Shown here one piece after another: positions 6,018-6,839 of a DNA stretch of 10,089 nucleotides. Numbering within the stretch: position 1 is the stretch's first letter; each line of letters starts with the position of its first letter. Location of the stretch: the IMG/VR virus record IMGVR_UViG_2675903357_000009. The stretch is one strand, 5' to 3'. The DNA comes from a virus. Lineage: Duplodnaviria > Heunggongvirae > Uroviricota > Caudoviricetes. A program made the translations under genes and the position numbers. Under the pieces are notes generated by a model. It had not been told where the DNA came from. It was given only the letters and a program-made list of their open reading frames with translations, and did no database searches.

Positions 6018-6839
6018 TTACCTAGTTACCTTTTTTAACTGCCGCTCAGCCCATGCTTCTTCAATATCAAACCGGGTCACCAGCGCATCATAAAATTTCT
6101 TAACTGTTTTTTCCCATGACGCGCGTGTTATCTGGTTTGTCACCTCGCATATAGCATTAAATGCCTCCGTTGATGGTAGTCTTTCATAGCCACGACCACC
6201 ACAACGCTGGCAGTCTCTGATAACAGGCATACCACGTTTTACCGACTCTTCACGATGAATGGCGACACCACGCCCACGGCAATCCTTACAGGCGGTGGAA
6301 ACCTCACCCTTTCCGCCACACTCCGGACAGGCAACTTTTACCACCTCCCTGACTTTTTTCCATTCTTCCCAGTAAGACGGATACACACCTTTCGTACACT
6401 TTGCCCATACCGGCGGCTTACCATCCGGATACTGGATCTTGTTTGTAAAAACCTCGCTTTCAATAAATTTTTTTCCGTGACAGCAGGGGCACTGTTTTTT
6501 GCTCGCCGCGCTACGGGCATAATCTTCAAACGCATACGAAGCCATAATACGCATCACTGCCGGTTTTATTTCTGCCGGGAGTTTTCTTAACGCCGCCACG
6601 CGATCACACCGACTGAGTGCATATTCTGTCAGCAATTCTGTTGCCCGCTCTCTGTCATTCATACTAATGCCCATTTTCCCAAGGAACGCAGAAACCCCCA
6701 TCTCAGCCCGATTCTGTGTCATGCCCTGCGCGGCCATCACATCAGTGATACTCAGCGCATCTTTCGACGTTGAGGCCGATGCATCAGTCAGGCCGGGGGA
6801 TTTTGGGGAGTAGTATTTCGGTAAATCTTCCAGTTTCAT
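6018..6839 (-). CDS. Q: Late-gene antiterminator Q (lambda-Q family) with an expanded CxxCxGxG zinc-binding region
   Basis: 273 aa. The N-terminus (..YSPKSP..DVMAAQGM..) and C-terminus (..YERLP..YDALV..VTR) align by eye to lambda Q. ATGA overlap with the rusA stop. Confidence 0.9.
   Translation of the reverse strand: MKLEDLPKYYSPKSPGLTDASASTSKDALSITDVMAAQGMTQNRAEMGVSAFLGKMGISMNDRERATELLTEYALSRCDRVAALRKLPAEIKPAVMRIMASYAFEDYARSAASKKQCPCCHGKKFIESEVFTNKIQYPDGKPPVWAKCTKGVYPSYWEEWKKVREVVKVACPECGGKGEVSTACKDCRGRGVAIHREESVKRGMPVIRDCQRCGGRGYERLPSTEAFNAICEVTNQITRASWEKTVKKFYDALVTRFDIEEAWAERQLKKVTR

Follow-up and report, generated by a model that had tools for sequence, protein, structure and literature searches.

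A lambda-family Q antiterminator with four cysteine motifs in a lambdoid prophage remnant represents the apparently predominant long form of its family

The Q gene in the stretch of virus DNA analysed here (the window, 10,089 nucleotides) encodes a clear lambda-Q-family antiterminator with four cysteine motifs. Taking all of the evidence together, we consider it likely that this is a standard lambda-family Q, carried by an S. sonnei-type lambdoid prophage remnant, which has a second Cys4 site and belongs to the common long form of the family. The gene, its family and the four-motif architecture are already present in public databases and in classical phages, and the Q gene of the window is in itself an ordinary, already annotated prophage gene. 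All structural and mechanistic knowledge of the Q-lambda family has come from the 207-residue protein of lambda, and the extra Cys4 module appears to be present in the majority of family members, among them those of phi80 and ES18 and the Q proteins that abound in E. coli and Shigella prophages. If the module alters the docking of Q on RNA polymerase, what has been concluded from lambda would have to be qualified for most natural Q proteins.

The intact open reading frame occupies positions 6018-6839 of the minus strand and encodes 273 residues, with the stop codon at 6018-6020; the plus-strand translation of 6018-6839 contains many stops and no open reading frame. The preliminary description had assigned the product to the lambda family of Q antiterminators, and three comparisons confirm this. 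The protein matches the Pfam Antiterm model (PF03589) with 179.2 bits against a cutoff of 26.7 (E=1.6e-53), it matches lambda Q (PDB 7UBM) with E=3.5e-41, the N-terminus, body and arm all being aligned, and the significant Foldseek matches of its model are lambda Q chains only, the best being 7ubn_Q, the NusA-engaged form of lambda Q (E=4e-14, TM 0.75 relative to the target). The HMMER match to lambda Q is split into two blocks, with residues 1-113 corresponding to lambda 1-113 and residues 182-273 to lambda 116-207, and identity over the shared parts is about 40%. The homology to lambda Q (PDB 4MO1, 7UBJ-7UBN; PF03589) spans the N-terminal torus segment, the helix-turn-helix (HTH) body, the zinc-ribbon arm and the C-terminal helix. 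The Q proteins Q21 (PF06530) and Q82 (PF06323), as well as AlpA, have no sequence relationship to the window's Q; Q21 shares its function with Q-lambda but is no structural homologue of it (PMC9388147).

The work on lambda provides the frame within which the regions of the window's Q can be read. In lambda Q, residues 1-44 refold into a torus or nozzle at the RNA exit channel, the HTH body is built from residues 61-113 together with 153-207, and the intervening residues 114-152 make up the zinc-ribbon arm, which swings about 75 degrees around the hinge between body and arm (PMC9388147). Residues 106-107 of lambda Q contact NusA, residues 110-112, 117 and 122-126 contact the zinc-binding domain (ZBD) of beta', and the arm tip, residues 133-137, contacts sigma R4 (PMC9388147). 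In the window's Q, alignment with lambda places the homologue of the N-terminal segment at residues 1-44 (6708-6839) and the second half of the body, to which the helix-turn-helix region and the C-terminal helix belong, at residues 218-273 (6021-6188, placed also by the AF2 model), while the first half of the helical body is formed by residues 61-113 (6501-6659), all on the minus strand. In lambda, as here, the Q gene follows nin/rusA genes.

The four CxxCxGxG-type motifs reported earlier for the 273-residue protein, on a strand that had gone unstated, are indeed there. These are motif 1, CPCCHGKK (residues 117-124, 6468-6491), motif 2, CPECGGKG (residues 171-178, 6306-6329), motif 3, CKDCRGRG (residues 184-191, 6267-6290) and motif 4, CQRCGGRG (residues 210-217, 6189-6212), all on the minus strand; motif 1 ends in K and is thus strictly CxxCxGxK. 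Across 109 aligned homologs of 54-97% identity, on which conservation was scored, C171, C174 and G176 of motif 2, C184, D186, C187 and G189 of motif 3, and C210, C213, G215 and G217 of motif 4 are invariant, and C117, C119, C120 and G122 of motif 1 are at least 90% conserved. The motifs lie far beyond chance, because their cysteines are invariant or nearly so among these homologs and because all four motifs occur in 109 of the 120 best matches among 5.8 billion proteins, those 109 being 260-277 residues long and the other 11 mostly shorter or partial sequences. The earlier statement that lambda Q has two such motifs and one zinc site is likewise correct, since its CRDCHGTG (at 118) and CGRCKGVG (at 144) together form a single zinc ribbon (PMC9388147). 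Motif 3 aligns with C118/C121 of lambda and motif 4 with C144/C147, and lambda Q lacks the 68-residue insert, the two further Cys motifs and the long beta-hairpin of the window's Q.

The preliminary description implied that a Q with four motifs is special. Our survey points the other way, as four motifs are the majority architecture and are found in phi80 and ES18 as well. An exhaustive search of 1.84 billion representatives recovers the whole family in only 234 clusters. Among the 33 full-length representatives at 50% identity, about 30 have four Cys pairs, whereas two motifs only are found in lambda's cluster and one other, and one more cluster has an atypical pair. Motif 3 is often one residue shorter in the full-length family representatives (CxCxGxG). 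Within the family, the linker joining motifs 1 and 2 varies between 6 and about 55 residues, the one joining motifs 2 and 3 is fixed at 5 residues, and the one joining motifs 3 and 4 has 18-19 residues. In sequenced phages the long form accounts for 131 of 249 matching records, i.e. around half of the Q-lambda-type matches. Phages that carry it include phi80 (gene 17, product of 269 residues), ES18 (gp73), Fels-1, mEp460, PHB10, YeP1 and FSL SP-016, and their proteins share with the window's Q the four motifs, the variable hairpin between motifs 1 and 2, and the linkers of 5 and 18-19 residues. They are 33-55% identical to it (96% in mEp460_ev081), and many of them differ from it in the shorter motif 3. 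The closest clusters contain thousands of E. coli sequences, and the long form is present in thousands of E. coli and Shigella assemblies. The exact Q protein is indexed in 2286 assembly blocks, S. sonnei 53G among them, and 1079 of 5426 complete E. coli genomes cover at least 80% of a 1.9-kb segment that includes Q.

By these sequence counts the long four-motif form is the predominant architecture of the family, with the two-motif form of lambda in the minority. The two short forms do not form one clade in 190 of 200 bootstraps of a neighbour-joining tree that is unrooted, poorly resolved and built on saturated distances, and because the short forms do not cluster, the tree suggests that the lambda form was derived by loss. 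On the counts and this tree, which has no outgroup, the single-ribbon Q of lambda is probably a derived deletion. It had been anticipated that the extra motifs would be unremarkable if they proved common to a well-characterised subfamily of known structure. Common they are, but the known structure is that of the short lambda Q only: a PDB search found no long-form structure, and literature searches, the coverage of which did not extend to the phi80 genome paper, returned no paper on a four-motif or DnaJ-like Q or on the extra module.

The extra residues form an insert of 68 residues relative to lambda Q (residues 114-181, 6297-6500, minus strand), delimited by the HMMER split and the family alignment, which holds motif 1, a beta-hairpin and motif 2. 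It lies between lambda residues 113 and 116, exactly at the junction of body and arm, because the lambda body ends at 113, the arm is formed by 114-152 and the match splits at this point. Its position coincides with the hinge of the lambda arm and falls inside the beta' ZBD contact patch (110-112, 117, 122-126). The segment between motifs 1 and 2 (residues 125-170, 6330-6467, minus strand) had been described as a Trp/Lys-rich insert of some 40 residues, which roughly agrees with its actual 46 residues, 3 Trp and 7 Lys; its net charge is +2, and that of residues 114-181 is +5. It is predicted to form a long beta-hairpin, as the AF2 model (pLDDT 84.9) has strands at 125-136 and 159-170 directly between motifs 1 and 2, and a sub-model reproduces this layout. 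The hairpin tip has a pLDDT of about 70 and a variable sequence, and residues F125, I126, V130, F131 and K134 of the first strand are conserved. The equivalent of the lambda arm is the strand-helix-strand element of 18 residues between motifs 3 and 4 (residues 192-209, 6213-6266, minus strand), placed by the AF2 model, the alignment and the lambda structures (PMC9388147). It spaces the two motifs just as in the solved zinc ribbon of lambda, its residues 199-203 match the sigma-R4-contacting tip of lambda (133-137), and G203 is invariant.

The eight conserved cysteines in four knuckles lead us to expect two Cys4 zinc sites. Motifs 3 and 4 correspond to the two-knuckle Cys4 arm, with C184/C187 and C210/C213 invariant, an 18-residue linker and predicted zinc ligands. 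The sites probably form in tandem, from motifs 1 and 2 and from motifs 3 and 4, because each of the two predicted hairpins is closed at its base by one of these motif pairs and because zinc closes the unit of motif 3, 18 residues and motif 4 in the solved lambda protein. As an origin of the module, an internal duplication was considered and rejected, since an hhalign comparison of residues 112-181 with residues 180-222 found no more than a motif match of 14 columns, at a probability of 25%. The deletion variants P0008 and P0012 were considered as natural tests of the insert and proved uninformative, as their deletions fall in the body. Another representative, P0193 (223 residues), retains Cys pairs at just two positions, those of motifs 2 and 4, with motif 1 deleted and motif 3 degenerated to AAGAG, a sequence pattern which hints that the knuckles may be interchangeable with one another.

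The site on which Q would act begins 5 nt after the Q stop codon. It has the layout TTGATT-16-TAAATT-6-AACGATGGG and comprises, on the minus strand, a P_R'-like -35 hexamer TTGATT (6007-6012), the 16-nt promoter spacer TTTCCGGAATCTGTGG (5991-6006), which is the candidate Q-binding element (QBE) at the position of the lambda QBE, a -10 hexamer TAAATT identical to that of lambda P_R' (5985-5990), and a -10-like sigma-dependent pause element, AACGAT followed by GGG (5970-5978), 6 nt after the -10 hexamer as in lambda. A strong, tR'-like intrinsic terminator follows at 5911-5937, with a 7-bp GC-rich stem, a T tract, a fold z of -2.76 and a position conserved in related loci. By analogy with lambda, in which the pause element occupies +1 to +6, transcription without Q is predicted to yield an RNA of about 65 nt. 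The layout, including the -35 hexamer, is kept in 79 of 80 closely related viral loci, in which the spacer TTTCC[G/C]GAATCTGTGG hardly varies but the 6 nt following the -10 hexamer do, a pattern consistent with the spacer being the candidate Q-binding element.

Lambda P_R' (NC_001416) reads TTGACT-17-TAAATT-6-AACGATGGG, likewise followed by a terminator; its pause element is identical to the one in the window, and its spacer is of other sequence and 17 nt long against the 16 nt found here. The long-form Q genes of PHB10, mEp460, SP-016, YeP1 and phi80 have the same layout of pR', pause element and terminator downstream, and the phi80 annotation includes a pR' and a Q site, the latter at the same place as the candidate QBE. 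It had been suggested that the extra motifs might go together with an altered spacing of the qut/pause site. The comparison does not bear this out: the distance from the -10 hexamer to the pause is identical to lambda and the promoter spacer differs by 1 nt, and, because the layout matches lambda both here and in the long-form phages, the extra zinc module occurs without a re-spaced qut/pause site. In Rfam, the short P_R'-proximal transcript gave sub-threshold matches only, namely Trp_leader (21.8 bits) and isrK (16.2 bits against a gathering threshold of 50, E=0.23, over 5914-5985, minus strand). The isrK match is probably due to chance; isrK is an Hfq-binding sRNA of Salmonella prophages, and the match occupies a place comparable to that of a phage RNA terminated close to its promoter.

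We propose that the window's Q would act as follows. It would bind the QBE in the P_R'-like spacer via its HTH body and the zinc-ribbon arm formed by motifs 3 and 4, and would capture RNA polymerase at the sigma70-dependent pause set by AACGAT. The arm tip (199-203) would touch the repositioned sigma R4, and Q would dock on the beta' ZBD. With NusA, the N-terminal segment of about 44 residues would refold into an exit-channel nozzle that blocks formation of the terminator hairpin, and the polymerase would pass the terminator (5937-5911) and transcribe the genes beyond it. Within this scheme, the 68-residue insert is modelled as a second Cys4 site, formed by motifs 1 and 2, which clamps the base of a long, variable beta-hairpin. 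Because the insert sits at the lambda hinge and in the region of contact with the beta' ZBD, it would most likely stiffen the arm or enlarge the contact with RNA polymerase (or with nearby upstream DNA or NusA), leaving the basic mechanism unchanged. An essential, fixed partner for the hairpin tip is disfavoured, because the tip varies in both length and sequence.

The preliminary description had suggested that the module may change how specific or how stable the complex of Q, RNAP and qut is. One alternative holds that the second arm is a specificity determinant, which recognises additional DNA, such as sequence upstream of the -35 hexamer, or makes a distinct contact with RNA polymerase or NusA. 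We regard this as possible but doubtful, and we are equally hesitant about its corollary, that long-form Q proteins load by a route measurably unlike that of lambda Q. The place at which the insert emerges speaks for such a role, being the beta'-ZBD patch of lambda, near the NusA-contacting residues 106-107 (PMC9388147), as do the positive charge of residues 114-181 and the conservation of F125, I126, V130, F131 and K134 in the strand. However, the lambda-like pause spacing and the promoter spacer within 1 nt of lambda's give no hint of a longer QBE, and a hairpin that ranges in the family from 6 to about 55 residues, with an unconserved tip, argues against a fixed essential contact of the tip. 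Along the same lines, the second ribbon and its hairpin could tentatively be seen as a functional second arm that replaces the beta'-ZBD contact of lambda or adds a contact with DNA or NusA. A takeover of the beta'-ZBD contact is conceivable because motif 1 adjoins the conserved SAA patch (110-112). If this were true, most Q-lambda-family proteins would load with another geometry or cofactor requirement than lambda Q, and lambda would be a secondarily minimised outlier.

A nested, DnaJ-like pairing of the motifs is, in our opinion, improbable. Motifs 1 and 4 would then form the basal site equivalent to that of lambda and motifs 2 and 3 a distal, anti-TRAP-like site, so that the insert would elaborate the interior of lambda's arm and there would be no second ribbon beside it. 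Motif 1 does come right after the conserved SAA (110-112) and motif 4 right before GYxRxP, exactly like the two knuckles of lambda, and the linker between motifs 2 and 3 is invariantly 5 residues; anti-TRAP, which aligns to motifs 2 and 3, makes one zinc site from two motifs 6 residues apart. Against these points stand the AF2 model, in which the linker between motifs 1 and 2 pairs with itself in a hairpin of 12+12 residues that joins these motifs and does not run alongside the linker between motifs 3 and 4, unlike in DnaJ, and the solved lambda structure, in which zinc closes the 18-residue element between motifs 3 and 4 (PMC9388147). Under tandem or nested pairing, the models point to a di-zinc hub with two projecting hairpins where lambda has one arm.

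The region 2515-10089 of the window is 99.97% identical to S. sonnei chromosomes, and the neighbourhood is that of a lambdoid prophage remnant, with hok/sok, a DUF968/HNH gene, rusA, Q, a small ORF, a DNA methylase, tRNAs and STnc100. The hok/sok-type toxin-antitoxin lies at 8853-9178 (minus strand; a 70-residue Hok/Gef ORF, PF01848, E=3e-23, with an overlapping Rfam sok match of 112 bits). The ATG of Q overlaps the rusA stop by 4 nt (ATGA, 6836-6839) and the end of the DUF968/HNH gene abuts the rusA start (7216-7219), a tight packing that suggests translational coupling of the three genes. Downstream of the terminator, on the minus strand, lie a 65-residue ORF (5596-5793; phrog_331, a weak TrmB-like HTH match, with its own terminator at 5609-5592) and a 352-residue N6/N4 DNA methylase (4387-5445), which would be the first Q-dependent genes in the window. 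A tRNA cluster, Met(CAT)-Arg(TCG)-Arg(TCT), follows downstream of the full Q at 4097-4346 (minus strand).

A second copy of Q, 97.9% identical to the first and 5'-truncated (from about codon 136 to the end), lies together with its P_R' region and terminator at 1997-2513 (minus strand). This copy has lost its stop codon to a deletion of 8 bp (AGGTAACA), so that the frame enters the promoter, and the pause element AACGAT has become AACTAT. Past the terminator the sequence runs straight into the tRNA genes, as in phage mEp460_ev081, and both the truncated copy and that phage lack the module of the 65-residue ORF and the methylase. The tRNA cluster downstream of it is Met(CAT)-Arg(TCT) (1707-1959, minus strand); the clusters of the window resemble the ileZ-argN-argO arrangement of Stx-type lambdoid phages. 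Just downstream of each prophage tRNA cluster there is a copy of the STnc100 sRNA (RF02076; 821-1010 and 3831-4020, minus strand, 132 and 124 bits). The truncated Q adjoins a truncated IS600-like (IS3-family) element (2515-3652, with the orfB transposase at 2791-3609 on the plus strand), the right inverted repeat of which ends near 3652 and the left (orfA) end of which is truncated at the Q fragment. The sequence of this junction has no match in species-representative genomes, and further IS600-like copies lie at the window ends (1-72 and 10018-10089).

These IS600-like copies, at both ends and at 2515-3652, along with the damaged second copy of Q, with its deleted stop codon and mutated pause element, might be taken to mean that the prophage is defective and IS-disrupted and that the intact Q gene, extra module included, is an inactive relic with no current function here. 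We think this quite unlikely, as the ORF is full length and an identical protein is found in very many assemblies, neither promoter nor pause element nor terminator is damaged, all three being equal to the commonest variant among the 80 related loci, and a near-identical Q is present in propagated phages such as mEp460_ev081. Q may be active in the window's host.

The idea of the insert as a chaperone or redox module of the DnaJ type, or of the protein as a relative of DnaJ, and not as part of an antiterminator, is scarcely credible, as it is effectively refuted by the homology of the whole length to lambda Q, by the absence of a J domain and DnaJ C-terminal domains, and by DnaJ matches that span only residues 163-218 and lie far below thresholds. 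Its basis is a COG0484 note on one phage record, the name 'chaperone protein DnaJ' given to some homologs (P0029, a Serratia long-form Q) and a weak match to TIGR02349 (DnaJ_bact; 27.9 bits, below the cutoff of 377). Database annotators had thus already noticed the DnaJ-type fingers. The Cys-rich domain of DnaJ/Hsp40 (PF00684) and anti-TRAP (RtpA) do share with the window's Q repeated CxxCxGxG knuckles with a beta-strand after each, and the protein has the four repeats characteristic of DnaJ, with K at the end of motif 1. The DnaJ-like arrangement put forward in the preliminary description is nevertheless not supported. The Pfam model PF00684 scores 30.1 bits, below the gathering threshold of 32.7, the precomputed match being flagged 'faint', and Pfam finds neither a J domain nor DnaJ C-terminal domains in the protein, the flanks of the motifs being Q-lambda body. 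The linkers of E. coli DnaJ follow the pattern 9/14/6, compared to 46/5/18 residues in the window's Q, and pairing is nested in DnaJ (1+4, 2+3), whereas the hairpins predicted for the window's Q imply a tandem arrangement.

Parts of Q also occur in other combinations. One related protein, P0202 (326 residues), has a different, DUF968-like N-terminal part (CWHCDNQL) fused to the C-terminal half of Q with motifs 2-4, and P0196 (319 residues) apparently likewise joins a different N-terminal part to the C-terminal half with motifs 2-4. In phage mEp460_ev081, the DUF968 gene (locus L083, 1-817) is annotated as 'antitermination protein Q'.
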